Origin: an uncultured Verrucomicrobiae bacterium
Lineage (GTDB): Bacteria; Verrucomicrobiota; Verrucomicrobiia; Limisphaerales; Palsa-1400
Assembly (NCBI GenBank): GCA_963707025.1
Contig: CAVPOM010000007.1
Span: 486,864 to 550,863, forward strand
Direction of reading: 5' to 3'
Length of the DNA stretch: 64,000 nt
Shown here: one piece after another, positions 31,209 through 49,287 of the stretch
Layout: every line of letters begins with the position of its first letter
How positions within the stretch are numbered: position 1 is the stretch's first letter
Program-made: the position numbers and the translations under genes
Notes under the pieces: model-generated
The model's database searches: none
What the model saw: only the letters and a program-made list of their open reading frames with translations
Told to the model about the DNA's origin: nothing

Positions 31209-31511
31209 TAGCCGGAGCAAAATGGGCGAGTAAGCGGAACGGAAGGATTTTCAGGCTGAGGGACAAGCTTGAATTGGGTGCGGCGTGAGTGCGGCGGTTT
31301 TGCGGAGCGCAGCTGGAGGGTGGCGGGGGCGCGGAGTCAGAGCGAAAGCCGCCGCTCTCAGGACGGCGGGGAAAAGCGGGTTGGAGACGATTTTGGAGAC
31401 GGTTTTGGGTGGTGGAACGAAAGATTTTTGATAGATTGGTGCCTTTGACCCGTATTTAATAGATAAGGCGAATTCTGTTCCGTGTTTGGTGATGGCCGAT
31501 GTATTTAGTTT
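31209..31511 (+). repeat. ~300-bp non-coding direct repeat, copy 1
   Basis: Aligns with 41376..41666, e.g. GCGAAAGCCGCCGCTCTCAGGACGGCGGGGAAAAGCGGGTTGGAGACGATTT is identical. Confidence 0.9.
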
Positions 31512-31648: not shown

Positions 31649-33154
31649 TTATTGGTGCAGTGATTTATTCAAGTACAATCGGTAAGTAGCATCCTCATAG
31701 GCCAATGAGTACTCTTCCGAAACAAATCGCTCCATGTCTGCGTCAGGGAATTCCCGAGTTAATAGGATCTGCTCTGGCCTGCGTCGCCTAATTGCCGTGA
31801 GAATCGCATGGTCCGTAATCTGGCCTGACCAAAACCGCTTCGCTGGCAATACGGCCAGCTCGGGAGGCACGCGCAATCCCGCATGAAATGGAAAAATGGT
31901 GAATCGTGTATACACCCATTGTGTTCGACTAGCATAAGTTTTCATGGTTGCAATGAGTTTGCTCTCATTGACCTTTGGCAGGTGTCGAATTCGTTGAATC
32001 TCCAACAGAAAACGTAGCCCTCCACAAACTATCAATGATGTGATCAGGGCCGAAGCCAGGAGCAAGCTACTTACGTTAGCCAGGGTGGGGTGGGGCGATG
32101 CGGTGCTTGCTCGGATTCTTGCCATTCGCAATAGTTCCACGATCGCGTATGCGCTCAGAATTGCCATTGGTACGGCAAAATGGAGGTAATAGTACCCCCA
32201 CCAAGGCCGATGTATCGCATGCACAATGCCAGCAGTAAGAAGCATTATGACGGGAAAAGCCATACGACGCCAATCTCTCTTGAGGAGGATAATAAAAAGT
32301 CCAACTGTGGTGCCGAGCAATCCTTCCACATGGTCTAAAAAGTGCGTTGGAGAAAGCACATGCCCTCTAGCTTCTGCAGACTGCGCTATATTTCTCGAGA
32401 AATGGGAACTCCAAAACTGCCCATAATCGCTACCCAATGTCAGAGATAATATGGAGAATGTGATGGCGATTGCAGTGAGCCAAACAGTCACAGCTTTGGC
32501 GGAAAAACTGGACCAATTCCCCAAAATCATCTCATGTGACGTCAGAATGATATCCATTATTAATGCCGGCAACAGGATGGCTGCGGTGAACTTGATCTCC
32601 AGTGCAGCACCCAGGAGTATACCTGATAATAGCAGCCACCCCCGCCGTCGGGATCGCCTCCATCTAAGCAGCGGCCATGCGGCCAGCATAGCGACACCGA
32701 CGCTTGGAACTTCAAGCATCGCGGAAATGCTCAACTCGAAAACACCTGGTGCGCTAATCAAGAAGATAATGACAATAAATGCCGCCAGGCTGCTAACCAT
32801 TTTTTTCGTCCAAATCCAGCATCCACTGAACAGTCCTATTCCGAAAAGGATGGACACCACTCGCGCAACGAAAACCTGCGTTCCGAACAACTTGAACGCC
32901 GTTCCTAAGAGAACCGTGTGTAATGGCGGCTGGTCATCCCAAACCGGGTTGTACAACTTGTAACCCTGAGACCATAAGGCCGCTTTCGTAACCTCAAAAG
33001 ATTCGTCCGGACCAATACTTATCGCCGAGCGAATTGACGAGGAGCAGAGAGCGAGTGTTGCGGCGACTCCAAAAAGCACAGCCACAGCCCGTGCCTCGGG
33101 TCCCCACATAGTGGACTTTCGAGAATTCAAGGGATTGACAGCCGGTGACTTCAA
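31649..33154 (-). CDS. GT-C membrane glycosyltransferase (ArnT/PMT_2, GT39/83-like)
   Basis: GPDESF...LYNPVWDDQPPL; many TMs; LLGAALEIKFTA. Confidence 0.85.
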   Translation of the reverse strand: MKSPAVNPLNSRKSTMWGPEARAVAVLFGVAATLALCSSSIRSAISIGPDESFEVTKAALWSQGYKLYNPVWDDQPPLHTVLLGTAFKLFGTQVFVARVVSILFGIGLFSGCWIWTKKMVSSLAAFIVIIFLISAPGVFELSISAMLEVPSVGVAMLAAWPLLRWRRSRRRGWLLLSGILLGAALEIKFTAAILLPALIMDIILTSHEMILGNWSSFSAKAVTVWLTAIAITFSILSLTLGSDYGQFWSSHFSRNIAQSAEARGHVLSPTHFLDHVEGLLGTTVGLFIILLKRDWRRMAFPVIMLLTAGIVHAIHRPWWGYYYLHFAVPMAILSAYAIVELLRMARIRASTASPHPTLANVSSLLLASALITSLIVCGGLRFLLEIQRIRHLPKVNESKLIATMKTYASRTQWVYTRFTIFPFHAGLRVPPELAVLPAKRFWSGQITDHAILTAIRRRRPEQILLTREFPDADMERFVSEEYSLAYEDATYRLYLNKSLHQ

Positions 33155-33595: not shown

Positions 33596-34012
33596 TTATT
33601 GATTGCTACCATTACTACCGCTACCGTTACAGCCGTCGACCATAGCGCAATCCTCAAACTCTGCATTTATAGGATTGTCAGGGTCTGCAACCCATTGCCC
33701 TGTTGCAGCACTCCATGTGTAATCGTCTTCGGTACAGCTAATCCAGGTATCTGTGATGATACAGCTCGAGGTGGATGAATATGGACGAGCACACATAGGC
33801 TGCCCATACACCACTGACAGCGTGGCTCCGTCATAGTTGCCGACGAAAACAGGCGGCGGTCCCAACGACACCAATGTACATCCCACGCAATGCGAATGAT
33901 TGTAGTGCTGACAGGTCAGACACTGCTGCGCCTGCGCAATAGGACTCAGCAGCCAGCTGACCCCAAAGACAAATGCGGACATAACCAGAGCTTTTAACCG
34001 GGTATTTTTCAT
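33596..34012 (-). CDS. Secreted Cys-rich miniprotein (module A)
   Basis: Signal peptide ending AQA; about 110-aa mature region with 9 Cys; ATGA overlap with the upstream gene. Confidence 0.75.
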   Translation of the reverse strand: MKNTRLKALVMSAFVFGVSWLLSPIAQAQQCLTCQHYNHSHCVGCTLVSLGPPPVFVGNYDGATLSVVYGQPMCARPYSSTSSCIITDTWISCTEDDYTWSAATGQWVADPDNPINAEFEDCAMVDGCNGSGSNGSNQ

Positions 34013-35247
34013 ATTTCTATGCCTTTCGTTTTTTCTCGAATTTGAACATTCGACGACCACAGAGCCTTTGCCATGACCGCCGAAACTCCAATAAAAACCA
34101 GGATAATGACCGGCGGAACGATCTTCTCCCGTCTCAGCCGCCAAATCTCGGATTTTATACTAGGAAGAGACACGAGCTCCTGCTCATTAAGCCATTGCCC
34201 ATTCTTGGCAAGATATCGGGCGCTGGCAATCTTAGGATATTTTCGCTGAATTCTCTCGTCATAGACAATCGTTCTTAGGGACTTGTCCGGGTCGAAGTGA
34301 GGTGTGACGCCGACGGAGGAAAGATTCGTTAGCACGCCATCAATTGTCCAAATATTAATCACGTCTGCTGACGACACGCCCGCGAGTCGAGGCCCGAAGC
34401 AGGCAAGTCTAAAACGTAGAGGCAAGTCAACGACGGCAGTACCACTCACAGGTAGATCGATAGCGAAGTTAGTCTCTTCTAAAACTTCATAGACTTCATT
34501 CGTGAAGCCGTTGCTAAAAGGCTTGGGAGCAGGGTAAAACACCACCTCAGGGTTCCCCGTGATTGTAAGGTTAGTCCCTGCTTTAGACCGAGCGCTTTGA
34601 ATATCCCCCCCAAACGTCCATTGTTTTCCTCGATTCCAGAAAACGATGTGGCGGGGAATGTAATCAGTTTTTCCTAAAAATTCCCATGTGGCACGAAGGG
34701 GATAATCGCTCTGAGACATCGATGCCTTCGGAATCTCGCAAACGGGTGCGATTTTGCCATTGGTTATGGTATTCAAGTACCGGCCGGAACAGAAGGCAAG
34801 CCATACCGGTGCCACGGCAGATCCTCCGAAGGTCGGAATTTGCGTGCATTCCACCTTGCCAGTGGAATCATTCATAACAGCGTTTGTCGGTGACACGAAG
34901 GTAACGTCGTTAGTCCCTCCCTTTACTGTCGTTCGCTTAACAAGATTTGTTCCGGTCATAGCTTTTGAGACGGAGAACAGATTTGTTCCATCGAAATAGG
35001 CCTCGTCGAATTTCCCTGCCTGGGTTCCTCGCGCAACCTCGGTTCGAATTGACCACTTGTCGTCGGCCACATCCACTCGAAAAGTCCGCGTGACAACCTT
35101 TGACGTTTGACCATTGTTGAAAACTGACCACGTCAGGTAACCTTCCCCGTGAAAGCCAGCCGCAGGAATTGTGGCACAACTGGCTAATAAAGCGACAACC
35201 GTTCGGAAGAAACCTCCGGTATGCAAATTGCGTGCAGTAAGTAGCAT
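34009..35247 (-). CDS. Secreted beta-rich protein with C-terminal TM anchor (module A)
   Basis: N-terminal signal; C-terminal IVPPVIILVFIGVSAVMAKALW plus basic tail. Confidence 0.75.
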   Translation of the reverse strand: MLLTARNLHTGGFFRTVVALLASCATIPAAGFHGEGYLTWSVFNNGQTSKVVTRTFRVDVADDKWSIRTEVARGTQAGKFDEAYFDGTNLFSVSKAMTGTNLVKRTTVKGGTNDVTFVSPTNAVMNDSTGKVECTQIPTFGGSAVAPVWLAFCSGRYLNTITNGKIAPVCEIPKASMSQSDYPLRATWEFLGKTDYIPRHIVFWNRGKQWTFGGDIQSARSKAGTNLTITGNPEVVFYPAPKPFSNGFTNEVYEVLEETNFAIDLPVSGTAVVDLPLRFRLACFGPRLAGVSSADVINIWTIDGVLTNLSSVGVTPHFDPDKSLRTIVYDERIQRKYPKIASARYLAKNGQWLNEQELVSLPSIKSEIWRLRREKIVPPVIILVFIGVSAVMAKALWSSNVQIREKTKGIEI

Positions 35248-35319
35248 TGCTATTTTTTAACACGCTGGCTGGATCTTGGCAACAAAAAAATCACTTGGTG
35301 CGGCGTGTTAAGTATGCTT

Positions 35320-35935
35320 ATTCTAAGTTGCTTTCAAGATGAGACTAATTATGCTGGATGCTTTATATGGCAAGACCACGAAGAACCGACCGTGAATTGG
35401 TCCGGAAAGCGTTGGGTGTTTCCCAGCGAACCCAAGACAGCCATGAACTGCGCCAGGCCTTGGCCGTCCTGCTGCCAGCCGAAATGAACGCCACTCTGGA
35501 GCAAACCGCCAGAGTGCTCGGAATTGGGCGTGCGACCGTCGCTCGCTTGCAGCGTGGTTTTGGCGAGCACAAGCTGTCGGCAGCACCACGCAATATCTGG
35601 GGCGGGCGGCGGCGTTACCTGATGAGCCTGCCCGAGGAACGAGAGTTTTTGGAACCGTGGGAGAAACAAGCCAAGGAGGGCGCTGTATTGATCTTGTCCC
35701 AAGTGGGTGCTGCATTGGCGCAAAAATTAGGGCGAAAAGTCAATCGCTCGGTTGTTTGGCGATTGCTGGCTCGGCATGGCTGGCGCAAGGTGGCCCCCGC
35801 TACCCGTCATCTCAAGAGCGATCCCCATGTGCAGTAGGCTTTGGGAAAAAACTCCTCAACTTCCAGAAGCACGTCTGGGATGAATTCCGAAAGAAAGTGT
35901 TTCGAATCGAGTTTTCAATTCGATGAAAGGCATCC
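35320..35935 (+). mobile_element. IS630-family remnant (winged-HTH ORF; DDE part lost)
   Basis: WGGRRRYLMS...VWRLLARHGWRKVAP..RH, then a stop and degenerate sequence. Confidence 0.75.
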
Positions 35936-36033
35936 CGGCGCAGTTAGTCAGCCCTTTCTGCCAAAAGCCTAGTTTCCCTAAAAGGTCCCGCCCCAACATC
36001 TCAACCACGCCAGCCAACCCATCATCAAAATAG

Positions 36034-36489
36034 TCAGACCACCGACACTGGAACTGGCCCATGCTTAACACGACGGGTTATAAGTATCGCTATGCTGCCG
36101 AGAAGGAGATACCCTAAAATAACTTTCGTTATCATATCAGCCACGTTTGCAGGCATGTGAAGAATTGCAGTCAAACTACCTAAGCAAGGACACGGCAGAT
36201 GATAGTCGAGCAGAATCAATCCCACACGATAGACTAAAAACATTGAGGCCAACCAGGCAACCAATCCACTCTGGACAAGCGGGCGTTTGCCAAAAAAGCA
36301 GATACTGGCAACAATCATTTCGAGGCTTCCTACAATCAAAAACAAGTATCGAAATGGAATCAAGAAAATGGGGTCTGGAAATTCCAAAGCCTTAATGTGT
36401 CCAGCACTGCTAAATAGCTTTGCCAGACCTACCAGTCCTAGCAGTATTCCTGCCGAATATAAAAAATACTTGGTCATTGCTCGTTGCAT
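36034..36489 (-). CDS. MauE/DoxX-family membrane protein (module A)
   Basis: Four TMs; AKLF, LEM and PCPCLG (MauE CxCxG). Confidence 0.8.
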   Translation of the reverse strand: MQRAMTKYFLYSAGILLGLVGLAKLFSSAGHIKALEFPDPIFLIPFRYLFLIVGSLEMIVASICFFGKRPLVQSGLVAWLASMFLVYRVGLILLDYHLPCPCLGSLTAILHMPANVADMITKVILGYLLLGSIAILITRRVKHGPVPVSVV

Positions 36490-36597
36490 CGTCTGGCTGA
36501 ATTATGAAAGCGCGGAGTTTTGACAACTCCATAAAAAGGTGACTGTTGCAAACGCGATTGCGATAAACCCACGCATGAAACTCGTTCTAGCTGCGGC

Positions 36598-36909
36598 TCA
36601 GGGCTGCTTCGTACTTTCATATTCTAATGACTCGGCTGAAATCCGAATAGGCCGACCACCTTCAACACTGATTTCGGCGATGGATCCATTAGTGGATGAC
36701 ACCGAAGCAATGATGTTTTGCTTGTTGTTCAAGGTTGTGATGTCACCAAATAGCTTAAGCTTGGCTCCATTTAAGAGTCGAAGCTCCGCTAGAGTTTGAC
36801 CATGAGATTTGAGGCGAAGCACCTCCGACTGCTGGTTGGTGCCTGATTTATCAATGCCAACAGCTCCAAGCGCTAGCGCGAGCACAAGAGACGCAGATAA
36901 TATATTCAT
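36598..36909 (-). CDS. Small secreted hypothetical protein
   Basis: Signal-like MNILSASLVLALALGA; co-oriented upstream of the MauE-like gene. Confidence 0.55.
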   Translation of the reverse strand: MNILSASLVLALALGAVGIDKSGTNQQSEVLRLKSHGQTLAELRLLNGAKLKLFGDITTLNNKQNIIASVSSTNGSIAEISVEGGRPIRISAESLEYESTKQP

Positions 36910-37451
36910 AGTGTAATTATGAGAAACGAACACCGTTGAACGCGATTGTCGGAGCTGAAGCTTCCCGCAGCGAGCCGATGGACAGTCAATTCGCGAAGCT
37001 GGACTCATTGCCGCTCTGTCGTCAGCATAGCCGCCAAGCTTCGTTCAACGACATTCGCACACTCCGGCGCAACTCCAGTGAACGCCGCACTCGATGAATA
37101 CCAGATCGAGAATCTCGTTCGATAGCATACTTTGAGTGGCGTTGGACCGCGCCGTTTGCAAGTACCGCGCTTCAATGCTTCACTTTATTTGCTCCAAAAT
37201 ACACCCTTCACAATCTGTGTCAAGACCTATTTGGCCGTATTTGGCTGGAAAGAGCGAATTATGCCAAGGGCGAAGTCGAATGGATGCAAAACGGGCGGTT
37301 TAGAATGGGATCTTCTTCCTGTGGATTTTCTTCGGAGGATTCGCTGAAAAATCTTCTTCCTTCTTCTCCCCTTTGATTTTTCTTGCGGCTGGATTTTCTT
37401 CCGTTCTTCGGCTCCGTTTTCCGATACTGGTTCCTTTTGATTTTGGAACCG

Positions 37452-38051
37452 ATGAAGCCGCCGCAACCCCGACGCAAGTGCTTGCACTGCAACGAACTTT
37501 TTCTTCCCGATTACCGGGGTGGACAACGCCAGTGCTATTGCCTCAAACCCGACTGCCGCAAGGCCAGAAAACGCGAGCTCATGCGGGCATGGCTGGCCAA
37601 GCCGGAGAACGAAAATTACTTCCGGGATGAGGAGAACGCCCAGCGAGCCCGCGACTGGCAGAAGGAGCACCCGGGCTACTGGAAAAACACCGCTCGCTAC
37701 CGGTGCCGTACCTTACAAGACGGCTGTTCGCAGCAAGTTCCTGCGCCACAAGAAGTTGCGAAAAATGCTCCCGACTGTACCTTACAAGACCTCTGTTCGA
37801 TGCAAGTGCCTCTGTTTGTGGGGCTTATCTCCATGTTCGTCGGCAGTACCTTGCAAGACGACATCGCCACCAGTGCCCGGCGCTTGGTAAGCAAGGGACA
37901 CGACATTCTGGGCATGGTGCCCGGCATGAACCTTGAAAGATTATTGCATGAAAAAACGTGTCCTCAATCCGGAGCGGCTCCGGAAAGTCCCGCCCCAGTT
38001 CAGCTGGATCGATCACCGGCTGGTGCGGGAAAACTACTTCCTCCGGTGTGA
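37452..38051 (+). CDS. IS21-associated Cys-rich hypothetical protein
   Basis: CLHC...YCLKPDCRKARK; WQKEHPGYW. Confidence 0.7.
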   Translation: MKPPQPRRKCLHCNELFLPDYRGGQRQCYCLKPDCRKARKRELMRAWLAKPENENYFRDEENAQRARDWQKEHPGYWKNTARYRCRTLQDGCSQQVPAPQEVAKNAPDCTLQDLCSMQVPLFVGLISMFVGSTLQDDIATSARRLVSKGHDILGMVPGMNLERLLHEKTCPQSGAAPESPAPVQLDRSPAGAGKLLPPV

Positions 38052-38319
38052 TCACGCGGCTTGGGCGCTCTACCTGTTCCTGACCAGCGTGGCCGACGTC
38101 GAGGGACTGAGCTACTACTCCGACGCCTCGCTGATGCGGCGCTTGAAAATAGATCAGGTGGGTCTTTCGGCCAGCCGCCAGCAATTGGTCCAAGCCGGGC
38201 TGATTGCCTATGAAAAACCTCTTTACCAGGTCCTGAGCTTGGAACCCGTCAGCGGAGACCGGTCGGGCCCGGTCAGCGTGGGGGACATTTTGCGCAAGGC
38301 GCTGGGAGGTGCGGCATGA
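37948..38319 (+). CDS. IS21-associated wHTH-like protein
   Basis: FSWIDHRLV...ALYLFL...GLSYYSD; ATGA overlap with istA. Confidence 0.75.
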   Translation: MKKRVLNPERLRKVPPQFSWIDHRLVRENYFLRCDHAAWALYLFLTSVADVEGLSYYSDASLMRRLKIDQVGLSASRQQLVQAGLIAYEKPLYQVLSLEPVSGDRSGPVSVGDILRKALGGAA

Positions 38320-39794
38320 TCGATTATCAAACCTATTGCCAGATTCGGCAGTTGTTCACCGAAAAGAAGCTGGGCCTGCGGCAGATCGCCCGCGAACTCA
38401 AACTGGGTTTGAACACCGTCCGCAAATGGGCCGGGCGGGAGAGTTTTAAGCCCGCCGCCATCCCTCAGCGCCCCAGCAAACTTGATCCGTTCAAGGGCGA
38501 CATCGTCCGCCTGTTGGAACAACATGCTTACTCGGCCCAGCAGATTTTCCAGCAACTCAAGGAGCGGGGCTTCCAGGGACGCTACACCATCCTCAAGGAG
38601 TTCGTGCGCCAGGTGCGCCCCAAACCGCGGCCGGCTTTCCTGACGCTCCACTTTGAACCCGGAGAGTGCGCCCAAGTGGACTGGGGATGCGCCGGTTCGG
38701 TCCCGGTGGGATCCACCCAGCGCCGCCTGTCCTTTTTTATCATGGTGCTGGCCTTCAGCCGCAAAATGTATCTGGAGTTCACGCTGGCCGAAACGATGGA
38801 GCATTTTCTGGCCTGCCACCAGCACGCCCTGGAATACTTCGGTGGGGTGGTGTGCCAGGTTTGGGTCGATAACTGCAAGGTCGCCGTCTTGAGCCGGGTC
38901 GGCACCTCGATCACGTTCAACCCGCGTTACTTGGATTTTGCCAACCATCACGGTTTTCAAATCAGAGCCTGTGGCCCATCTCAGCCCCAGGAAAAAGGGC
39001 GCGTCGAGAATGGCGTGGGATATGTCAAAAAGAACTTCCTCAACGGTCTGCAACTCTCGGATTTTCAAGCCGTTAATCCGGCGGCGCGCTATTGGTTGGA
39101 CACGGTGGCCAATATCCGGGTTCACGGTCAGACCCAAAAAACGCCCCAGGAACTCTTCACCCAGGAAAACCTCAAGCCCCTCCATCCGCTGCCTTATGAG
39201 GCGGCCGTCGTAGGCCCCGTCCGGGTCAACAGTCAGTTCCGCATCATCGTTGATGGCAACCGTTATTCGGTCCCCTGCCAGTATGCGTCGAGCCAGCTCA
39301 CCTTGAAACGGTTCGCCGACCGGCTCCTGGTTTATGACCAGGAGAAGCTGGTGGCCGAACATGTGCGCCGTTACGACCGCAACCAGGACTACGAGTTGCC
39401 CGACCATGTGGCGCCCTTGCTCTTGCACCGTAAAAAGGCACGCGAGCAAAAGCTCTACCTGCGCTTTTTGGCCCTGTGCCCCAAGGCCGACGATTACTAT
39501 CAGCAACTGGAACAGCGGCGTCTCAATCCCAAACATCACGTCCAGAAGATCGTCGCCTTGAGCGAGCTTTATGGCGTCGAAGCGGTCGCTCGCGCCATGG
39601 AAGACGCCTTCACCTATCAGGCTTTTTCCTGCGAATACATCGCCAACCTTTTACAGCAACGCCAGCATCCGCCCGAGGAACCCGGCGCGTTGCACCTGAC
39701 TCGGCAACAAGACCTGCTGGAGTTGGATCTGCCCGCGCCAGACCTCTCTCTTTACGACTCCAAGAACCAACCCGACTCTCCACCCAACCCATGA
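38316..39794 (+). CDS. istA: IS21-family transposase
   Basis: HTH, PGECAQVDWG, VDNCK, EKGRVENGVGYVK and DGNRYSVP. Confidence 0.95.
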   Translation: MIDYQTYCQIRQLFTEKKLGLRQIARELKLGLNTVRKWAGRESFKPAAIPQRPSKLDPFKGDIVRLLEQHAYSAQQIFQQLKERGFQGRYTILKEFVRQVRPKPRPAFLTLHFEPGECAQVDWGCAGSVPVGSTQRRLSFFIMVLAFSRKMYLEFTLAETMEHFLACHQHALEYFGGVVCQVWVDNCKVAVLSRVGTSITFNPRYLDFANHHGFQIRACGPSQPQEKGRVENGVGYVKKNFLNGLQLSDFQAVNPAARYWLDTVANIRVHGQTQKTPQELFTQENLKPLHPLPYEAAVVGPVRVNSQFRIIVDGNRYSVPCQYASSQLTLKRFADRLLVYDQEKLVAEHVRRYDRNQDYELPDHVAPLLLHRKKAREQKLYLRFLALCPKADDYYQQLEQRRLNPKHHVQKIVALSELYGVEAVARAMEDAFTYQAFSCEYIANLLQQRQHPPEEPGALHLTRQQDLLELDLPAPDLSLYDSKNQPDSPPNP

Positions 39795-40534
39795 ACGACG
39801 ATCAACTTGTGACGCATTTGTTTTACCTCAAACTCTCCTATTTTCAGGAGCACCACCAAGCCCTGGCCCAAGAGGCGGCGGAGAAAAACTGGACGCAACT
39901 GGACTTTCTAAGCCGCCTGGCCGAAGGCGAAGCCCTCCGGCGGAAGGACCGGGCGACCCAGCGCCGCATCCAGGCGGCGCGCTTTCCGGTCATTAAAACC
40001 CTCGAACAGTTCAACTGGACTTGGCCCAAGAAAATCAATCGAACCCAAGTGCAAAATCTCTTCCGCCTCTCCTTCCTCAAGGCCAAGGCCAATGTCATTT
40101 TCATGGGCGGCGCCGGCCTCGGAAAGAGCCACTTGGCGACCGCGCTGGCCTATGAGGGCTGTCTGGCCGGCCACACGGTGCTGTTCACCACCGCCATCAA
40201 CATCGTCAACACTCTGGCGGCGGCCCAATCCACCCACCGCCTCAAAGCCGAACTCAAGAAATACATGAGCCCCAGCATAATTTGTATTGACGAGCTTGGA
40301 TATTTGCCGATCAATAAAACCGGCGCCGATTTGCTCTTCCAAGTCTTCAGCCAGCGTTACGAGACCGGTTCGACCATCGTCACGACCAACCAGCCCTATA
40401 AAAACTGGCCCAAAATCTTCAACAACGACAGCACCCTGACCAGCGCCGTGCTGGACCGGCTCCTGCACCACGCCGAAACGGTGATCGTGGAAGGCCGGAG
40501 TTACCGTATGAAGGATCAGATCGAAACACCCTAA
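39791..40534 (+). CDS. istB: IS21-family helper ATPase
   Basis: GGAGLGKSHLA, IDELGYLP and LDRLLHHA...GRSYR. Confidence 0.95.
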   Translation: MNDDQLVTHLFYLKLSYFQEHHQALAQEAAEKNWTQLDFLSRLAEGEALRRKDRATQRRIQAARFPVIKTLEQFNWTWPKKINRTQVQNLFRLSFLKAKANVIFMGGAGLGKSHLATALAYEGCLAGHTVLFTTAINIVNTLAAAQSTHRLKAELKKYMSPSIICIDELGYLPINKTGADLLFQVFSQRYETGSTIVTTNQPYKNWPKIFNNDSTLTSAVLDRLLHHAETVIVEGRSYRMKDQIETP

Positions 40535-40544
40535 CATCCCGCAC

Positions 40545-40859
40545 TCACGGCTCTTTCGGTGGGCTCATTTGCTTCCGCGCCGCCGGGATCGTCGCTTCGT
40601 AGTCCGCCAAATACTTCTCAATCGAGTGCGCCGTGCCAGTGACTCGAAGCTCGGCGTTCACTCGATCAATTAAAATGGGCGCGTTCCCTGCCAGCCTATC
40701 CCGCGTCTCGCCAGAGGCCAAGTATTTACGACTCTGGTAAAAGAAAACCCACCCGTAGGGTCGTTTGAGCGTGTCCTCTTTGACCACAATAGCCTGATCT
40801 CCCGTGACGATCCTAATCCAGGTCTCGGCCAACTCCAACGCTTGAGCAAACGTGAGCAT
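40545..40859 (-). CDS. YrhB / Imm35-like immunity protein
   Basis: PYGWVFFYQSRKYL...LAGNAPILIDR...TGTA. Confidence 0.8.
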   Translation of the reverse strand: MLTFAQALELAETWIRIVTGDQAIVVKEDTLKRPYGWVFFYQSRKYLASGETRDRLAGNAPILIDRVNAELRVTGTAHSIEKYLADYEATIPAARKQMSPPKEP

Positions 40860-41375
40860 ATAATGTTACCCTTTTAATCATGCAACAACCGATCCGTTGT
40901 CAACCGCCCGTTTTGCATCCCGTCCTCGCCGCCGCCCACAAATTACGAATCCCAGATAATTAGACTTCTGGGAGAGCGCCACCATCCTGGTCGCCTCTGT
41001 CGGCGTTTGCAGCATATAGAGCGCCGGGCATCTTTTCAAAAGATAGTGACCGAAACGCCTTCGCGCACCGCTTGCCAGCGCAGACCGGTCAGGCGTTCCT
41101 CGTATTGATTCAAACGTCGGTCCAGTGTGCCCATGACATTCCCCACCAGCGGTCGCACCCGCATCTGCTGCAACACCTTCTCGGTGGTAACAACCTAGTT
41201 CATCACCCGGGCGCGCCCGGCTTTTCCGTACCAGTCCTCGAGCTTTTCTGTAGAAATCGGCTTAGGGTGGTCTCGTCGGTCATCGGTTTCTCTGGTCCTC
41301 CGTTTTGGTATACGTGAGAGGGCGAAGCTGTGACTCGCTCTCCACTTTGACACCAATTGGTGTCAAAACCCCGGA

Positions 41376-41666
41376 TAGCCGGAGCAAATGGGTGAAAAAG
41401 CGGAACGGAAGAGTTTTCCGGCGGAGGGACAAGCTCAAATCGGGGGGCGGCCTGAGTGCGGCGGATTTGCGGAGCGCAGCCGGAGGGTGGCGGGGGCGCG
41501 GAGTCGGAGCGAAAGCCGCCGCTCTCAGGACGGCGGGGAAAAGCGGGTTGGAGACGATTTGGGGTGGTGGAACGAAAGATTTTTGATAGATTGGTATTTT
41601 TGACCCGTACTTATTAGATAAGGCGAATTCTGTTCTGTGTTTGGCGATGGCCGATGTATTTAGTTT
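41376..41666 (+). repeat. ~290-bp non-coding direct repeat, copy 2
   Basis: See 31209..31511; copy 1 has an extra 12-bp internal duplication. Confidence 0.9.
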
Positions 41667-41832
41667 GGCGGGGTGTGGAAGTTAGCACTGGCAATAGGGG
41701 CAGCAGCAAGTGGGCGTTTGGCACGAAGTCCCGCACGAACGAAAAGGTTGCCAATTGGCAACCTTTTTGCAGGTGTTTGAATATGAGCGACTTGCAATGG
41801 CATTTGCCGGAAATGAGAGTTGAAGTGGCATT

Positions 41833-42051
41833 ATGAAACCACAAGCCTTCCCTACAGACACCCCTCCTCCCGTGAGTCGCTTGAGGGCGACTTCAGATCA
41901 ACCTTCGGCCACGGATCCACGGAGAAAAGTCATTGAACTCAAGGTGGCCGTCGAGAAGGGAGGCGAACCGGTGGTTCCCGGGCACATGATCTGCGTTTCG
42001 TGCGAAATCATCAGAAATACACAGATTTCTGATAGATTGGCGTTTTTGTAG
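41833..42051 (+). pseudogene. Truncated paralogue of the N-terminus of 42273..42988
   Basis: ATSDQP...KVIELKVAVEKGGEP vs ATTDQP...SVIELKLVAGKGIEP. Confidence 0.65.
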
Positions 42052-42272
42052 CGTATTCATAGTAACGGGATGTGTGGCCCGCGCGCGGTGATGGCACTTC
42101 TCCTGTTCGGAGGGTTGGGCTGATGTGCGGCCGGCAACTGGGCAAAGGCAAACGGGCATTATTGGACGAACGCGAGGACCAGTGAAAATGTTGCCAATTG
42201 GCAACATTCGTGCAGGTGGTTGAACAACAGCCACTTAGAAGGCAATAAACCGGAAAGAGAGACCAAATCGTT

Positions 42273-42988
42273 ATGATGAAACAAAAAGCCGGCGCCGCAG
42301 ACACCCGTGCTCTCGTGAATCGTCCGGGGGCGACAACGGATCAACCTCGGGAGGAGGAGCCGGGGAAAAGCGTCATTGAACTCAAGCTTGTCGCCGGGAA
42401 GGGAATCGAACCGGCGGTTGCGCTCTCCGCGAGCGAAAGAGGCGCGCTTGAAGCCTGCGAAGGGATTCTCGAACGAGGGCTAGGCACGTTTTTTGAGGTC
42501 GGCAATGCGCTCCTCACCATTCATGAAAGCCGGCTGTATCGCGATACTTATGCGACGTTCAAGCAGGTACCTGTGAGGACCGATGGAACATCGGCCGCTC
42601 ATACGCGTGGCGGGTGATGGGCGCAGCGGAACGACTGAAGCTGCTTCCCAGTAGCGATCACTTGCCGAAACCGGCCAACGAATTTCAGATGCGTCCCTTC
42701 CTCAAGCTGGCCCCGGAAGAGTTTCCCGGAGCGTGGAAGCGGGCAGTCAAAACGGCCAAGGAGGGAAAGGTAACGACACAGGTCGTTCAAGCCGTGATCC
42801 GTGAATTGCTGCCCAATAATGAGAAGCAAGCTGGAAAGAACGGGGAAACCAGCACATTGAAAGGCAAGTGGCCGAAAGGCCAGGTCCTGGTGCTGCTCAA
42901 TGAAACAAAACGGCAGATACAAAAAGGTGAGACCGAAAAGGCAGTGGCCGCGCTTGAGAAGATAGAGAGTTTGCTGTTCAAGGCATGA
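42273..42988 (+). CDS. DUF3102-like phage/ICE DNA-binding protein (frameshift near 42568)
   Basis: FFEVGNALLTIHESRLYR..YATF; removing two bases gives KQYCEDRWNIGRSYAWRVM, then PANEFQMRPF. Confidence 0.7.
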
Positions 42989-43227
42989 GGCAGCATCTGC
43001 TTTGATGATACATATATTGGTGAAACTGATAAAAGGGGCTGGCTCGACGGGCCAACGGGCCAGCCCCTTTACGACACCGGGCACGGGGTCACATCCTCAT
43101 GTATGTAGGCCCTGAAGTGGTGGAGGTATTGTTGACGGAAATTGCGGTGCAGTGGTAATCTGATTTGGCTGCCAGCGCGGGCCAAGTGCCCGGAATGCAC
43201 GACAGGCCTGTGCCCCACCTATGCGTG

Positions 43228-43599
43228 CTAGGACTCCAATTCTAATTGGTCGGCCACGCTTTCGATTGCAAACATGCCATTCAAGGCGCATGGAAAGCCG
43301 TAAAAAACTGATATTTGCAACGCCACCTCTGTCAGTTCTTCATGTGTGATCCCGGATTTCAGTGCCAATCGGGCCTGGACGAGCAACTGATTTTGCATCT
43401 GGCCAGAAACCATGAGAACCGCAATCGTCACGAGGAATCTTTCGCGGAGAGTGAGTTTATCGCGCTGGTAGATTTCCCCGTAGAGACGTTGAATCATGGG
43501 ATCAACCAACTCAGGCGACTTTTTGCTTAACTGGGCTATAGCACCAGCCATTACTGAATCGATCGAGTCGAGAAACTCCATCGGGGGTTTCTTATTCAT
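43228..43599 (-). CDS. Carboxymuconolactone decarboxylase (CMD/AhpD-like) family protein
   Basis: YGEIYQRDKLTLRERFLVTIA...ALKSGITHEELTEV...FYGFP. Confidence 0.85.
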   Translation of the reverse strand: MNKKPPMEFLDSIDSVMAGAIAQLSKKSPELVDPMIQRLYGEIYQRDKLTLRERFLVTIAVLMVSGQMQNQLLVQARLALKSGITHEELTEVALQISVFYGFPCALNGMFAIESVADQLELES

Positions 43600-43957
43600 G
43601 TCCTCAAAATAATCAAACATTTCAGGCCGTGCAAGCTTATTCTCCCCCAGTCTCTCAGACCAACAATCCATTCATGCACGACCCCCAAGTCCTCCGGCGG
43701 GCGCGCAAGCCACCATCGACTGCCGCATGGACTGTTCATTTGGTCACAAACTCGCTAAATGAATACAACTAATTCAACACATTCACCACATTAGTAATTG
43801 TGAAACCTTGTCGAAAGAGATCAAATGTCTTGACGATGCACTATGCAGATGTAATAAACTATAAAGTACACCTATCGAGTCGAGTTGGTCGGTAGCCGTG
43901 TGGTTGGTTAGTTTTTCTTGGAAAAGTTGATGTGATAAATATCGAAGTCACCTTAAA

Positions 43958-45148
43958 ATGCGATTTATGGCTCCAGCTTCTTTCCTGACTTGCTTTTGCA
44001 TGGGCGTCGCCTTTCTAGCCATTTCAAACGGGAGTCTGCAAGCACAGGAGGCGTCAAATGGCACCCAATCGCTCGACTTGACATTCGAATCATTTCTTGA
44101 ACACCCTCCGGAAATTGCGAGCGCCATTTGTCAGGAAACGGTTGATAACAGCATGCTGGATCCTGCACTTTCGACGAATTCTGTTGTGACAAGGCAGCCG
44201 AACGGGACCGGACCGATTCATAAACTCGGCAAATCGCAGATGCAGTTGATTACCAATAGTTTTACTTTTCTGGTTAAGTTTAAGTGGGATGGCACGAATT
44301 ATCTAATGTTCCAAAAGATGGACTCGGGACCTGGACAGTACAGAGGCAGGTTCAACGGGGTCTATTGGCACGGAATGGTAATTCCCTCAGGAAAGCCGGG
44401 CGCGGGGCGTGTTCCGATCACACTCATTGATCCTCAGATCAATCCACCGGGTTTTCGCCAGCAACAAATCGCCAAGGCCATGGACAACGTCAATTCGTTC
44501 GTCAATTTAGGATTTCCAGCGATCGATCCGGGCAGCCTTGTTTGGGATAAGGATAACCATCGCTTCTCTGCATCTTTCCATCGGTTTTCTGGCAATGCGG
44601 TATCTCCCCAGCGCGCCACCAACAATGGCAGCCTTATTGGTGTCAATATCACTGATTCTCAACAGCACGGGACAATGACCGCTGAACTCAAATATGAGAA
44701 CGAAGTGCCGGTAATGGCTGTGGTACGTCAGCAGGTTGCAGGGAATGACTCTGAATACACAATAAATTATACATACAGCCCGGATTTTCACCTAGGGAGA
44801 TTTCCCGTCGAGTACACTTCTGGAAACCACAGGGTACACTATCAGGAACTAATCCTTGTATCAGGGCCAATCCAGAAGGCCGACTTTGATCCTCAAGTTG
44901 CGCTGAAAGGCAAAATAGCGGGCCAGACCTTTTGGTCCAATGGTCTCACATATTATCACAATCCATCGTTGGGGGTTCTGAAGATGCCAACTACTGAAGA
45001 TTACATGGCTATGCTGGCAAGGCAAAATAGAACTGCTGTAATTGGTAGGATGGCGATTTTCATCCTCCTCATGTGCCCTGCTATCTATTGGTTTTACGCG
45101 TCTCGAAAGACGAAGTTGCACTCAAACCCTAAAAACAAAAACAAATGA
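43958..45148 (+). CDS. Secreted beta-rich protein with C-terminal TM anchor (module B)
   Basis: Signal ending LQA; C-terminal RMAIFILLMCPAIYWFY plus basic tail. Confidence 0.75.
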   Translation: MRFMAPASFLTCFCMGVAFLAISNGSLQAQEASNGTQSLDLTFESFLEHPPEIASAICQETVDNSMLDPALSTNSVVTRQPNGTGPIHKLGKSQMQLITNSFTFLVKFKWDGTNYLMFQKMDSGPGQYRGRFNGVYWHGMVIPSGKPGAGRVPITLIDPQINPPGFRQQQIAKAMDNVNSFVNLGFPAIDPGSLVWDKDNHRFSASFHRFSGNAVSPQRATNNGSLIGVNITDSQQHGTMTAELKYENEVPVMAVVRQQVAGNDSEYTINYTYSPDFHLGRFPVEYTSGNHRVHYQELILVSGPIQKADFDPQVALKGKIAGQTFWSNGLTYYHNPSLGVLKMPTTEDYMAMLARQNRTAVIGRMAIFILLMCPAIYWFYASRKTKLHSNPKNKNK

Positions 45149-45522
45149 AAATTACTAAACAAATAAGAAAAGCTCTCATAAAACTTCTAGGCGGCTTAGT
45201 CATTGCTGTGAGTTTAACAGCTAGTGCCTGCGATTGGCCATATAATCACTATTGTGGATACGAAACGGATTCCTATACATTTCCCGGCTGCGCTACGCCA
45301 GTAATATTTACCGTTTACTTTTATAATTTAAATTGTCTATACGGTCCCTCGACCTATGGATTTAGTCACAGTGTTTTAGGATCAGAACAGTGTGTTTCAG
45401 CTTATTATACCTATACCCTTGTAGATCCGTGCAACCCCAACATCACTGTGACTTTCAAAAACGCTCACACTCCACCCGAAGCGACCGCCATTTGTAAGGG
45501 TGGAGGCGAATGTCAAGGATGA
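45145..45522 (+). CDS. Secreted Cys/Tyr-rich miniprotein (module B)
   Basis: Signal ending ASA; 97-aa mature region with 8 Cys and 11 Tyr; ATGA overlap with the upstream gene. Confidence 0.75.
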   Translation: MKITKQIRKALIKLLGGLVIAVSLTASACDWPYNHYCGYETDSYTFPGCATPVIFTVYFYNLNCLYGPSTYGFSHSVLGSEQCVSAYYTYTLVDPCNPNITVTFKNAHTPPEATAICKGGGECQG

Positions 45523-45656
45523 GGATGTGCTGAAGGGTGTTCAACATAGAACAGATAAGTTGACGTGCCCCTATCAAGGCCACGCAGGATGAACACTCCC
45601 TTGATACAATTTGTATATTGATCCACGGTATAAGAACAAGTGGCGGTCAAAGTTCT

Positions 45657-46139
45657 ATGCGAACGAGGTTAATCTGGTCTTTTATCAAGTCCGCAGGGCT
45701 ATTTTTATTGCTTACGGCGATGGCAAAACTCCTGAGTGCAGCTGGTAGCGGGCGGTTATTAAACGTGCTTGATCCAATTTTCTTGATTCCGTACCGCTAC
45801 TTATTTGTATTGTTAGGGTTTGTGGAGCTTGGTATCGCGTTGCTATGTCTGTTTGGCACGCAAATAAAGCTGCAAGCTGCGAATTTGGCCTGGCTGTCTA
45901 CTGGATTCATAGTCTATCGTGTATTGTTGGTTTATGTGCGTTATCCACAACTGTGTCCGTGCATGGGTACACTAACAGATGCACTCCATATCCCACCTGG
46001 CACGGCCGATTTAGTTATGAAAATAGTGCTCGGCTACATTTTCGTTGGAAGTTATATTACACTATATTCACTTTTGAGACGGCGCTCTGAAACAGCCAAG
46101 CGCGAGTGGATGGCAGTTGCTGGTTCCGGTTCAAACTAA
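45657..46139 (+). CDS. MauE/DoxX-family membrane protein (module B)
   Basis: Clear paralogue of 36034..36489 (DPIFLIP.RYLF, AWL...F.VYRV, CPC.G). Confidence 0.8.
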   Translation: MRTRLIWSFIKSAGLFLLLTAMAKLLSAAGSGRLLNVLDPIFLIPYRYLFVLLGFVELGIALLCLFGTQIKLQAANLAWLSTGFIVYRVLLVYVRYPQLCPCMGTLTDALHIPPGTADLVMKIVLGYIFVGSYITLYSLLRRRSETAKREWMAVAGSGSN

Positions 46140-46186
46140 GTTCTAGGCGTTCTTGCCACTGCAATCCGTCGGCCATATCTATCCAT

Positions 46187-47695
46187 ATGAACTCTGTGAA
46201 TTTTGAAGAAAGGCTTCGTGAACTTGAGGAATTGCGCGAGGTTGGTGATATTACAAAGGCCTTGATCGGGTTCAAGAAAATACTGAATACGTGGCCGCGT
46301 GAGGTTCAGGCTTGGCTGGCGTATGGTCGTCTCCTCTATGGAATTGGTCAAATTAGTGCCGCCGAACAAGCATGGCAACACGTAAAGAAACTTCAACCAT
46401 GCAATTCGAAACTCCTGGTTGACCTTGGCCACCTATACTCGAGCCTGCGTCAGCCCGAGAAAGCGAGGACCTGTTTTGAAGAAGCCAAAGCCGCCGATCC
46501 AACTGCTATTGATCCGCGTATTTCCATTGCCTTGCAAGAGGAGAAAAATCATCGCTTCCATGAAGCCCGCGAGGCTGTTGAACAATGTTTTCTCATAGAC
46601 TCTGCCGGTGAGCAGGCGCGGTACGTTTCTGCCTTACTGTGCCATCGGGAAAATAAACTCGAACAATCTGAGGACCAACTCCGCGCTTTGATTGATTCCG
46701 GCCCAAAACATGAATACGTCCGTTATGCGGCGCGCTACGAATTGGCTCAAATACTCGACCGGTCTGGTCGCTTTGAAGAGGCAATGCTCCATCTCAACGA
46801 GGCAAAGAATCTGGTTGCCGCCCTGGCGGATGCGAAGATCCTCACAAAACGCCAAGAATCCGCCGCGAGTTCCCGACTGCGCAAAGCCAAGGCGTATCCT
46901 AAGAGCATTCTCCACACATGGAGCAAAATGTTTCCTGAAAAAATCAGAAAGCAAATTCCGCCCTTTGCATTTCTTGGCGGGCATCCGCGCAGTGGTACCA
47001 CCCTGCTTGAACAAGTACTGGGATCCCACCCGGAAGTTGCGGCGATTGATGAGCCTTTGGTGATAGGAATCGCGGCGACCGCAAGCAATGCAGCATCGTG
47101 GGGATTCTCAAGCGCACGCCTCAATGTAGCTCGACAGCGCTACATTGAAGCGCTTCATAGGTCACTCGGCGTTGATCCTGATGGCAGACTGCTCCTAGAA
47201 AAAAACCCTTCGCCAACCGCAATGCTCCCCGAGTTGCTGAGAGTTTTTCCGGAATTACGTGTGATAATTGCCATTCGAGATCCAAGAGATGTCGTTCTTA
47301 GCTGCTACTTTCAAAATATCCCCCTAAATCAAGTAATTGCCACATGGCTCTCGTTGGAAGGGTTGGCTAAATATTACGTGCATTTGATGGAGGTCTGGCT
47401 CGCAGTCCGCGAATGGGAAGGATTTTCCTGGATTGAAACAAAATATGAGGACATCGTAACAGACCTAGAATCAGAGGGGCGTCGCGTCACCCAGTTTCTC
47501 GGTCTGCAATGGCATGAGAATCAAAGAATGTTCTTCGAAGGCGCAAAAAAAAGGCGCCTTTACTCGCCAACATATCATGACGTAACCCAACCTGTTTATT
47601 CGCGTTCGGTGGCTCGCTGGCGCAACTACGAGAAATATCTGGAACCGATATTGCCTGTCCTGGAACCGTATTGCCGCGCGTTTGGATATTCATAG
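46187..47695 (+). CDS. TPR-containing sulfotransferase (Sulfotransfer_3 / TPST-like)
   Basis: N-terminal TPRs; GHPRSGTTLLEQVLGSHP, EKNP, RDPRDVVLS and YEDIV. Confidence 0.9.
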   Translation: MNSVNFEERLRELEELREVGDITKALIGFKKILNTWPREVQAWLAYGRLLYGIGQISAAEQAWQHVKKLQPCNSKLLVDLGHLYSSLRQPEKARTCFEEAKAADPTAIDPRISIALQEEKNHRFHEAREAVEQCFLIDSAGEQARYVSALLCHRENKLEQSEDQLRALIDSGPKHEYVRYAARYELAQILDRSGRFEEAMLHLNEAKNLVAALADAKILTKRQESAASSRLRKAKAYPKSILHTWSKMFPEKIRKQIPPFAFLGGHPRSGTTLLEQVLGSHPEVAAIDEPLVIGIAATASNAASWGFSSARLNVARQRYIEALHRSLGVDPDGRLLLEKNPSPTAMLPELLRVFPELRVIIAIRDPRDVVLSCYFQNIPLNQVIATWLSLEGLAKYYVHLMEVWLAVREWEGFSWIETKYEDIVTDLESEGRRVTQFLGLQWHENQRMFFEGAKKRRLYSPTYHDVTQPVYSRSVARWRNYEKYLEPILPVLEPYCRAFGYS

Positions 47696-47892
47696 GTCGG
47701 AAGATGTACACAGGAGGCCGATGAGACAGGAAAGAAAACCGCAATCCGTTAATATTGGCGCAGCCAAAGCCGCCACAATCTCCCTGAGTTCACTGCTGGA
47801 TTTGCAATGTTGTGCGGCAATTCGGCAGCGCAGCGAAGTATGCTATGGGAAGTGATTTCAGTTGATTACAATAATTTGGTTCGGAGGCCTAA

Positions 47893-49287
47893 ATGATGCA
47901 AGCCATCAAATGTTCTAAGCGAGCGCTATTCATGCTGTGGTTTCTCATAGCGTTAGCATACTGTTATATGCACCAAGTCCATTTCGACAATCCAATGGCG
48001 CGGTCGCGTCTTGATTTGCTCCACGCGCTCGTTACCAAACATACATTCTCCATTGACGCGTACCAATGGAACACCGAAGACAAGTCCTTTGCTAATGGGC
48101 ATTTCTACTGTGATAAAGCCCCCGGAGTAGTTCTTCTCGCGCTTCCGTGGTTTTACCTTTCGTCAAAAATTCTACCCGCTATTGGAGTCCCACTGGAGTC
48201 CCCAGATGGAAGCTTTGTGTCGAGTTGGATTTCCACTGCCGGTTCAGTTGGAGTCATCACCGCTCTGGGCTGCGTATTTCTGTATTTATTTCTCCAGGAA
48301 ATAATTCCGGCCCGATCAGCTCTTCTTTGCACCTTTGTAATGGCCTTCGGGTCAATGGCATTTGCATATGCCACTATGTTGCTTTCTCATGGAATGGTTA
48401 TCGGGTTGATCTGTATAGCATTATGGTGTTTGGTGCCGCCGCCCACTACCTTGGGGTCTGATCCTGCCGCAGAGGGGAGGTCATTTAACATCAGAATCGT
48501 TGGAGGCGGCTTTGCCTGCGGTTTGGCGATTGCATGCGAGTATGACTCCGCCCTGGTCGTGGGTGGCATTGTAATCGTCTTGCTGTTGCGGAATTGCAAC
48601 CGGGCAAGTGCTGCAATTACGGGTGCCGTCCCTCCCTTACTACTCATTCCCATCTACAATTGGATATGTCTTGGGACTCCATTTTCCTTACCTTACGGCC
48701 ATGAAGCGATTTTCAAAGAGATGAACACTGGACTTTATGGAATTCATTATCCCCAGACTGAGAATTGTATTTGGCTGCTTTTCAGTCCACAGCGCGGGTT
48801 GTTCTTTTGGACACCATTTTTGCTGCTGGCTTTTATCGGCTACCCCTTTTTATATCGTAGCTCTCCGTCGCTTTTTTGGCTTTGCTACTTGTTGCCGATA
48901 CTTCAGGTTGTTGTAATGTCTGGCTATTACACTGTTAACGCAGGTCAAACACTAGGGCCGCGTTTTCTTTCGCCTATCGTGCCATTGCTGATTATTCCGG
49001 CTGGGATCGCCGCGGCTAAATTGCCATGGATAGGGTTTCCCTGCGCAATTTTGTCAATCATTGAGATGGCCGGGGCAACCATGGTGGACGCAAGGTCACC
49101 TGCCCTTGCTACCGTCCTGGATGATAAAGTCATTACTTACTACATTTTGGAGTTTCAGAAAGGCACGGTGTCCCACAATCTTGGAGCCTTGATCGGACTT
49201 AAGCCACATTGGCAGATGGTACCATTAATTCTGACAATTGTAGTTGGAAGCTGCTTCTTAGCAAGACATCCTGCAAAAGAACATTGA
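47893..49287 (+). CDS. GT-C-fold multi-pass membrane glycosyltransferase-like protein
   Basis: DKSFANGHFYCDKAPG, LLFSPQRGLFFWTP and GPRFL. Confidence 0.7.
   Translation: MMQAIKCSKRALFMLWFLIALAYCYMHQVHFDNPMARSRLDLLHALVTKHTFSIDAYQWNTEDKSFANGHFYCDKAPGVVLLALPWFYLSSKILPAIGVPLESPDGSFVSSWISTAGSVGVITALGCVFLYLFLQEIIPARSALLCTFVMAFGSMAFAYATMLLSHGMVIGLICIALWCLVPPPTTLGSDPAAEGRSFNIRIVGGGFACGLAIACEYDSALVVGGIVIVLLLRNCNRASAAITGAVPPLLLIPIYNWICLGTPFSLPYGHEAIFKEMNTGLYGIHYPQTENCIWLLFSPQRGLFFWTPFLLLAFIGYPFLYRSSPSLFWLCYLLPILQVVVMSGYYTVNAGQTLGPRFLSPIVPLLIIPAGIAAAKLPWIGFPCAILSIIEMAGATMVDARSPALATVLDDKVITYYILEFQKGTVSHNLGALIGLKPHWQMVPLILTIVVGSCFLARHPAKEH

Follow-up and report, generated by a model that had tools for sequence, protein, structure and literature searches.

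Paired genes for anchored, predicted LolA-fold proteins and cysteine-rich mini-proteins beside MauE-like oxidases on a mobile element of an uncultured Verrucomicrobiae bacterium

Recurrence of the cassette and of the large/mini pair

A stretch of 64,000 nucleotides from an uncultured Verrucomicrobiae bacterium (order Limisphaerales; genome of 6.96 Mb, 88% complete), hereafter the window, carries two copies of a cassette that encodes a membrane-anchored large protein, a cysteine-rich mini-protein with a signal peptide, and a MauE-like membrane oxidase. The cassette is of a real and widespread type, undescribed in the full-text literature searched (most subscription journals were not covered), and it is built on a known oxidase and, according to structure prediction, a known fold. 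New here are the large/mini pair as a unit, two families of large partner with one predicted fold, the swapping of cassettes at one slot within a genome, and the re-use of the partner domain in signal transducers. Sequence comparison indicates that the pair, and not the triplet that includes MauE, is the unit that is inherited and shuffled together.

The module had been reported in a preliminary description of the window as present twice and in opposite orientation, and all six open reading frames (ORFs) were found. Both copies do contain the same three genes, but they are not arranged alike: copy 1 starts with MauE, followed by large and mini, whereas in copy 2 MauE comes last, after large and mini. 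Copy 1, moreover, is split by the remnant of an insertion sequence. Copy 1 lies on the reverse strand and consists of MauE 1 (36034-36489, 151 residues, with the Lys of transmembrane segment 1 (TM1), the Glu of TM2 and a CPCLG motif), a large protein of family A (34009-35247, 412 residues, with an N-terminal signal-like helix, a predicted LolA/LolB-fold ectodomain, a C-terminal membrane anchor and a short basic tail), and mini-protein 1 (33596-34012, 138 residues, with a signal peptide and nine Cys beyond it). The remnant between MauE 1 and the large gene, on the forward strand (35358-35837), is a winged helix-turn-helix of transposase type (HTH_33, E 4e-9) that has a tblastx match on contig C12 of the same genome and is presumably IS630-like. 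Copy 2, on the forward strand, comprises a large protein of family B (43958-45148, 396 residues, with a signal-like helix, a predicted LolA-fold ectodomain and a C-terminal anchor), mini-protein 2 (45145-45522, 125 residues, signal peptide, eight Cys), and MauE 2 (45657-46139, CPCMG). The MauE 2 frame is open from a TTG at 45618, and the ATG at 45657 gives 160 residues, the length of database record P0007. As the preliminary description had it, ATGA forms the large/mini junction in both copies, the ATG of the mini gene overlapping the TGA of the large gene. The G+C content of the six genes is 0.42-0.51, compared with about 0.60 for the genome. Directly upstream of MauE 1 lies a reverse-strand ORF of 136 residues (36598-37008) with a signal-like segment, which gave no match in Pfam and NCBIfam scans.

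Contig C16 carries one more MauE-like gene of this subfamily (the third) together with two further pairs, in the order AraC, large (435 residues), mini (128 residues), MauE, MauE::large fusion (565 residues), mini (77 residues); the N-terminal part of the fusion is a weak MauE match (E 0.0025) with the motif CSC. The genome was screened heuristically for mini-proteins (signal peptide, 60-230 residues, at least six Cys, no further helix), yielding 24 candidate ORFs that on reading were mostly spurious or unrelated. Only four pairs of a large gene followed by a mini gene were found genome-wide, and all of them adjoin the three MauE-like genes. At random sites (n = 5000), a mini-protein lay within 2.5 kb in 1.06% and a pair in 0.18% of the cases.

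The same association was observed in relatives. A contig scan gave 49 loci, mostly titled Verrucomicrobiota and some Limisphaerales, along with several titled Bifidobacterium that are probably mislabelled. Within 2.5 kb, the heuristic detected a mini gene in 40 of these (39 after dropping a false call at locus L006), a large gene in 35 and both in 32. Among the 115 unique CxC-containing MauE-like genes, 78 have 2.5 kb of sequence on each side (37 with short flanks were dropped), and these adjoin a large and a mini gene in 56 cases (72%), a large gene only in 11, a mini gene only in 6 and neither in 5, so that mining the neighbourhoods of MauE-like genes for small Cys-rich ORFs, as had been proposed, recovered the pairs, and the lack of co-occurrence that would have spoken against the earlier view was not seen. 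The large profiles were built from the counted loci themselves and the mini screen independently, and kin are not independent, for which reason the co-occurrence figures are descriptive. A profile of the MauE-like proteins matched in 91 of 301 genomes of the order, a count that includes degenerate and more distant paralogues. There are 61 types of large protein among 73 unique pairs, and the earlier view of a polymorphic system was borne out.

Several observations point to the pair as the unit. The -4 overlap between large and mini gene was found in 24 of the 73 unique pairs. When a mini-protein had a clear relative (n = 32), this was encoded behind the best-matching large protein in 21 cases and behind one of the three best-matching in 25. 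From the similarity between mini-proteins it could be predicted correctly for 61 of 65 to which family the large partner belongs; the four misses, which include mini-protein 2, are all in family B. The cognate pairing of large and mini-protein assumed in the preliminary description is thus supported by co-divergence. Six large types occur in two multi-pair arrays each, and their neighbour differs every time. By contrast, the MauE that neighbours an orthologous pair ranked 1, 5, 9, 13, 19, 25, 28, 29, 38 and 49 of 52 in ten comparisons; an eleventh, tandem pair, to which one MauE is common, was left out of these ranks. As the MauE lineage does not follow the pairs and one MauE adjoins several of them, MauE is shared and not cognate, and the notion of a dedicated redox maturase for each pair, to which MauE as a general oxidase also runs counter, found no support.

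Properties of the three proteins

The two MauE-like proteins of the window are clearly similar CPCxG paralogues, as had been noted earlier (45% identity over 132 residues, E 2e-40). Their scores with the Pfam MauE profile (PF07291) were 23.7 and 24.8 bits (E 6e-5 and 3e-5), below the gathering score of 27, while a relative from locus L124 passed the cut-off with 28.2 bits, and we therefore regard them as a divergent MauE subfamily. C113-x-C115, the TM1 Lys (K37) and the TM2 Glu (E70) are invariant in the MauE alignment, and CPC is kept in both window proteins. The residues following CxC in the 115 ORFs are LG in 97, MG in 9 (together 106) and FG in 2. Since the genome encodes a further MauE above the Pfam cut-off and a VKOR fusion elsewhere, the cassette genes are best seen as extra copies; DsbB gave no match in this genome, 88% complete, in a search with positive controls. 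Eight of the 115 ORFs, in addition to the gene on C16, are in-frame MauE::large fusions. These comprise both families of large protein, still have a signal-like segment where the two parts meet and are scattered over a quick MauE tree, on which the least number of forced changes is one, so that a repeated origin of the fusions does not follow.

The accessible part of a recent preprint (10.64898/2026.03.05.709764) presents MauE as a general DsbB-like disulfide-forming oxidase that replaces DsbB, a four-helix membrane protein with an essential CxC and conserved TM1 Lys and TM2 Glu, which occurs without mauA and is fused to thioredoxin in 8.2%. The window proteins share the CxC, the Lys and the Glu, with no mauA in their module, and differ by L/M-G after the CxC, where most MauE proteins have F-G, and by their sub-cut-off Pfam score. 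Here, in addition, extra copies travel with cassettes of candidate clients, whereas that part of the preprint describes no cassette or client. In the mauE-mauD-mauA clusters MauE likewise stands beside a small exported disulfide-rich protein, but no MauD or thioredoxin gene adjoins either MauE of the window, and the mini-proteins are hypervariable and unrelated to MauA by Pfam. In accordance with the earlier statement that mau structural genes are absent, neither MauA nor MauB is present in the window module or matched anywhere in the 88% complete genome, in a search that had no positive control. Candidate clusters for ribosomally synthesised and post-translationally modified peptides in Streptomyces (decRiPPter, PMC7794033) contain mauE and mauD without the rest of mau and were proposed to serve other small products. 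They belong to a different phylum, and the portion of that article at hand includes neither a tethered LolA-fold partner nor shuffled pairs; the corresponding portion of PMC12419801 does not mention MauE. A parallel in Bacteroidota may be formed by DUF6520 and MauE, for which a full-text search gave no paper.

Other MauE relatives were encountered in the related loci. A second MauE-like paralogue lacks the CxC (L003:3388-4080, L006:2472-3182, L088:12233-13597, L130:6878-8242, L131:5472-6854); it is followed by zinc-ribbon repeats (12 unique) and is fused to a prepilin/DUF1559-like protein in three loci. MauE is fused to a transglycosylase-like domain, which we take to be MtgA-like, in L125:2934-4298, and to a multi-helix glycosyltransferase-like domain in L128:3345-5327.

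The mini-proteins of the two copies show no sequence similarity to each other (E 0.93), and a profile built on the remaining B-type mini-proteins failed to detect mini-protein 2 (E 5). The Cys count was even in 56 of 73 mini-proteins, and an alignment of 12 members (two rows identical), whose identity is about 20%, has Cys in every row of 10 columns. The proportion of nonsynonymous differences was lower than that of synonymous ones (pN < pS) in all five pairs of at least 50% identity, and the ratio of the corresponding rates (dN/dS) was 0.11, 0.26 and 0.47 in the pairs without saturation, showing that the mini genes are real and under purifying selection. The nearest homologue of the large protein of copy 1 is found in locus L126, as a fusion with MauE. 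The mini-protein encoded behind it begins with CxxCxH, as does mini-protein 1, the alignment score between the two mini-proteins being below significance. A lipobox-like word at the first Cys was seen in just 5 of 94 mini-proteins, and the idea of a lipoprotein cargo was consequently rejected. A cationic antimicrobial peptide or microcin is likewise disfavoured by the median net charge (-3) and median mature length (106 residues). A possible long client variant is encoded at L006:3656-5023, where an exported protein of 455 residues with 23 Cys lies upstream of an anchored protein and MauE.

Neither the large proteins nor the mini-proteins of the window match Pfam, NCBIfam or PHROGs. The large proteins of the two copies are not similar in sequence (best E 0.79), in line with the high divergence reported earlier for the large and mini genes. 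The traces then thought to be shared, DGTN and FDP, are present in both as words and have no significance on their own. Among the 73 unique pairs, family A has 50 members (including copy 1) and family B has 15 (including copy 2); profiles place six of the remaining eight in one or the other. Profile-profile comparison of A and B aligned merely 14-17 columns, the sequences giving no link of ancestry, and searches of PDB sequences with both profiles returned nothing under E 0.07. An atlas search with family A led to unnamed clusters from Verrucomicrobiota, and a TP_0789-like lead scored under 0.9.

Structural models, on the other hand, gave the same answer for both families. For family A (mean predicted local distance difference test (pLDDT) score 81.9), the top 16 structural matches all belonged to the LolA/LolB superfamily, the best being LolA from P. 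aeruginosa (Z 11.5, root-mean-square deviation 3.6, 161 residues aligned), with RseB at Z 6.8. For family B (pLDDT 73.8), LolA-superfamily entries made up the top four Foldseek rows (E 2e-4 to 6e-4), and Foldseek assigned both models to the superfamily with probability 1.00 and E 2e-4. Both large families are therefore predicted to have the LolA/LolB fold, an open antiparallel beta-barrel with a helical lid, and an earlier guess that they are LolA-like holds for both models. The predicted barrel and lid are shared with LolA, LolB, DUF1329/TP0789-like proteins and the N-domain of RseB/MucB, but the ectodomain here exceeds 300 residues with insertions, is followed by a C-terminal anchor and shows 6-12% identity. 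The soluble periplasmic LolA carriers differ further from the large proteins, which are anchored, have no LolA sequence match and are encoded beside mini-proteins that are not lipoproteins. Conserved Cys are lacking from both families (Cys frequency of the best column 0.24 and 0.19), and a thiol relay by the large protein was rejected on this ground. The tail behind the anchor in stand-alone large proteins has a median of 11 and at most 32 residues. Complex prediction for the best-sampled pair of family A, the ectodomain of locus L043 (66-row alignment) with its 12-Cys mini-protein (11 rows) gave a score of 0.01, the fold of the partner being uncertain.

The large domain is not confined to the module: fusions join it to MauE, to ECF sigma factors and to BlaR1, and it often stands alone. 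A family B domain follows an ECF sigma factor in three cases (on C6 and in L151 and L153) and a BlaR1/M56 domain in one (L159), and a search for longer B-type proteins, a weak test, found none. The ECF fusion on C6 (C6:425859-428069, 736 residues, also listed as L002) has an outside domain that shares 37% identity with the large protein of copy 2 and may be a candidate one-component sensor for mini-protein 2; no mini gene adjoins this or the other fused forms. A mini gene follows 99 of 124 profile-defined large genes in a relaxed test, leaving 25 without; when the loci were read, two misses and at least one false call came to light. A selection of 20 family B loci from beyond the MauE-flanking set includes 8 with an adjacent mini gene and 12 without, and 5 with a MauE-like match (one weak); two of the remaining loci end at a contig edge. 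Outside the order, a sample of 150 genomes of the phylum contained a single one with a match to the family A profile; within the order, the family B profile matched in 44 of 201 genomes.

A third type of partner was also seen beside MauE, a protein of about 290 residues with an N-terminal anchor only and no match in a Pfam scan, which sits downstream of shorter mini-proteins with a CC motif (L003:4783-5993, L034:4673-5875, L043:3070-4335, L045:960-2154). Tandem family A large genes without mini genes, followed by a GT-C-type membrane glycosyltransferase gene, are found at L112:4272-6394 and L117:165-10117.

The integrative element and its other genes

Comparison of the window with C16 at the DNA level revealed matches of 74-97% identity over 28385-31101, 41973-42361 and 50201-63998. 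The interval from 42362 to 50200 (G+C content 0.49) is a variable cargo slot that holds copy 2, and its counterpart on C16 (164986-170514) has different large, mini and MauE genes. The window and C16 are thus two versions of one integrative element, with flanks of 79-97% DNA identity and unrelated cassettes exchanged between them at one slot. Copy 1 is carried by an extra segment bounded by repeats of about 300 bp (31209-31511 and 41376-41666, 87.8% identity), which also contains a recent insertion sequence of 3.7 kb (37262-40940, forward strand) encoding rve and Mu-transposase C domains. This sequence, presumably IS21-like, is found at five other places in the genome at 99.2-99.9% identity and is context rather than part of the module. 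The same applies to the tyrosine integrase of the slot-carrying element (27640-28719, reverse strand), which together with a TrwC relaxase-helicase (24062-26950) forms a mobilisation module (13825-31100); similar integrase regions were found on seven or more further contigs of the genome.

Sulfotransferase genes (one with tetratricopeptide repeats) and genes for GtrA, GT87, GT2 and GT-C proteins surround the cassettes (46106-55963 and 31649-33154), a cluster that suggests a mobile surface-modification kit. The end of the window (57339-64000) is 97% identical to C16 and, from 60787, 99.7% identical to the end of contig C9. It contains a weak REP_ORF2-G2P match (60319-60978), a protein of 70 residues with a signal peptide and transmembrane segment (61254-61466) and an anchored, Gly/Ser-rich protein of 691 residues (61628-63703). 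The arrangement recalls a filamentous prophage; a PHROGs scan of 57339-64000 gave no match.

Recurrent neighbours in about 50 related loci were genes for prepilin/DUF1559-like (28), hydrolase-like (24), Wzy_C-like (18) and small AraC proteins (13), with no thioredoxin cluster among them, a crude motif scan included. A tblastn search of the source genome matched neither the Wzy_C-like nor the hydrolase-like neighbours, and prepilin-like genes are abundant there anyway (41 matches).

Possible roles of the pair

We favour, at a probability of roughly two in five, a reading of the large/mini pair as a swappable unit made up of an exported effector that is oxidised with the help of MauE and a cognate tethered catcher, serving immunity or self-recognition. 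The mini-protein, with its predicted signal peptide, would cross the inner membrane by the Sec route and would then be stapled by disulfides, the shared MauE adding oxidising capacity. As the cassette is without thioredoxin and the large proteins are without conserved Cys, electrons may reach MauE by way of a housekeeping DsbA-type protein or directly. The tethered LolA-fold partner, translated from the same transcript, would bind its own mini-protein and no other, and the pair may act as a strain-specific effector and catcher. The tail that the catcher extends into the cytoplasm is short, some 11 residues, and on its own the catcher would be expected to sequester and not to signal. A role in conflict or recognition is suggested by the hypervariable cognate pairs, the shuffled arrays, the orphan partners and the exchange on a mobile element. 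The frequent large genes without a mini gene would fit orphan immunity or receptor genes, and the use of the B domain by ECF and BlaR1/M56 proteins fits a ligand-binding module.

Polymorphic toxin-immunity and microcin/bacteriocin-immunity cassettes are characterised by coupled cognate pairs, shuffled arrays and orphan partners. Such features, and mobile low-G+C islands, were found here too, but domains of toxin or carrier type and a dedicated exporter are lacking, and the mini-proteins are acidic and of Sec type. Several points weigh against the effector-catcher reading. No toxin, receptor, immunity or delivery family in Pfam, NCBIfam or PHROGs matches any part of the cassette, and an outer-membrane export route is not part of it. 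Most toxin-immunity pairs are unlike this one, in which the partner is encoded upstream and is three times the size of the mini-protein. The net charge of 94 mini-proteins ranges from -15 to +4, with none at +5 or above, which makes them unlike membrane-active peptides, and the Cys count of mini-protein 1 is odd. The overall Mantel correlation between mini and large proteins is weak (rho = 0.108), and co-divergence supports pairing and not binding, because adjacent genes co-diverge without contact. ECF and M56 proteins of this group bear many kinds of outside domain, making the fusions a modest sign, and the MauE::large fusions would also fit a role in folding.

Such a role is the essence of an alternative in which the large protein is a client-specific folding chaperone that fills the place of MauD or thioredoxin in other MauE clusters, keeps its own mini-protein near MauE and releases it folded as an envelope or secreted product. 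We consider this unlikely, yet the strongest competitor, given that the fusions involve both large families and echo the MauE-thioredoxin fusions, that large and mini gene are translationally coupled, that thioredoxin clusters are not among the recurrent neighbours, and that LolA-fold proteins are carriers and chaperones. However, a large protein without conserved Cys would not act as a thiol relay, a mini gene to serve is lacking beside many large genes, and the fusions, which keep their signal-like segment, may stem from adjacency, the tree requiring as little as one change. The mini-protein might instead be a strain-specific diffusible signal, and the large protein the receptor ectodomain for a separate or fused transducer such as an ECF factor or BlaR1-type protease, as the three ECF fusions and one M56 fusion, the resemblance of the C6 ectodomain to the copy-2 large protein, and the small AraC gene in 13 loci and at the head of the C16 cassette would suggest. 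With so short a tail on the stand-alone proteins, only four fusions (none in the weak test for longer proteins) and no mini gene adjoining the fused forms, this is quite improbable.

Somewhat less probable again is a variable surface or envelope coat, in which the mini-protein would be structural or adhesive, possibly glycosylated (GT-C, Wzy_C-like) or displayed on pilins, and its variation a means of escape from phages or predators. The Wzy_C-like, prepilin/DUF1559-like and hydrolase-like neighbours, the GtrA, GT87 and GT2 genes flanking the slot and the location on a mobile element are consistent with a coat, but the cassette exists in the source genome without matches to the Wzy_C-like and hydrolase-like genes, the prepilin-like genes are common regardless of it, and N-x-S/T sequons are not enriched in the large proteins and weakly so in the mini-proteins (95 vs 80 ± 8). 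A coat would also leave the 1:1 partner unexplained. That the genes share an AT-rich island by chance, with MauE acting as a general oxidase, is very improbable: the generalist nature of MauE (10.64898/2026.03.05.709764, accessible part), the stand-alone large genes and the low G+C content of all parts would allow it, but it is largely refuted by the co-occurrence of 72% vs 1% and by the fusions, and the -4 overlaps, the co-divergence of the pairs and their shuffling independently of MauE also speak against it.

A bolder form of the effector-catcher reading, which we put forward tentatively and hold to be doubtful, would see in the pairs a new class of ligand-receptor code among bacterial proteins, with dozens of families of disulfide-knotted mini-proteins that are folded by MauE without thioredoxin, read by LolA-fold catchers and swapped on integrative elements, the catcher domain serving a second time as sensor in ECF and BlaR1-type proteins. 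If this were true, LolA-fold proteins would gain a role as specific protein receptors, and nature would provide, in an abundant uncultured order, a library of cystine-rich scaffolds together with their binders. Were binding cognate, the pairs could serve directly as a collection of disulfide-rich ligands and receptors that are orthogonal to one another.

Beyond methylamine dehydrogenase, the cassette offers a large class of candidate natural clients for MauE that can be put to the test in E. coli. The partner families and mini-proteins are absent from Pfam, NCBIfam and PHROGs among those scanned, yet a MauE-like gene is found in nearly a third of the genomes of the order that were searched. 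Strict pairing, reshuffling and the swapping of cassettes at a single site of a mobile element are typical of conflict or self-recognition systems, which are little known in these bacteria.

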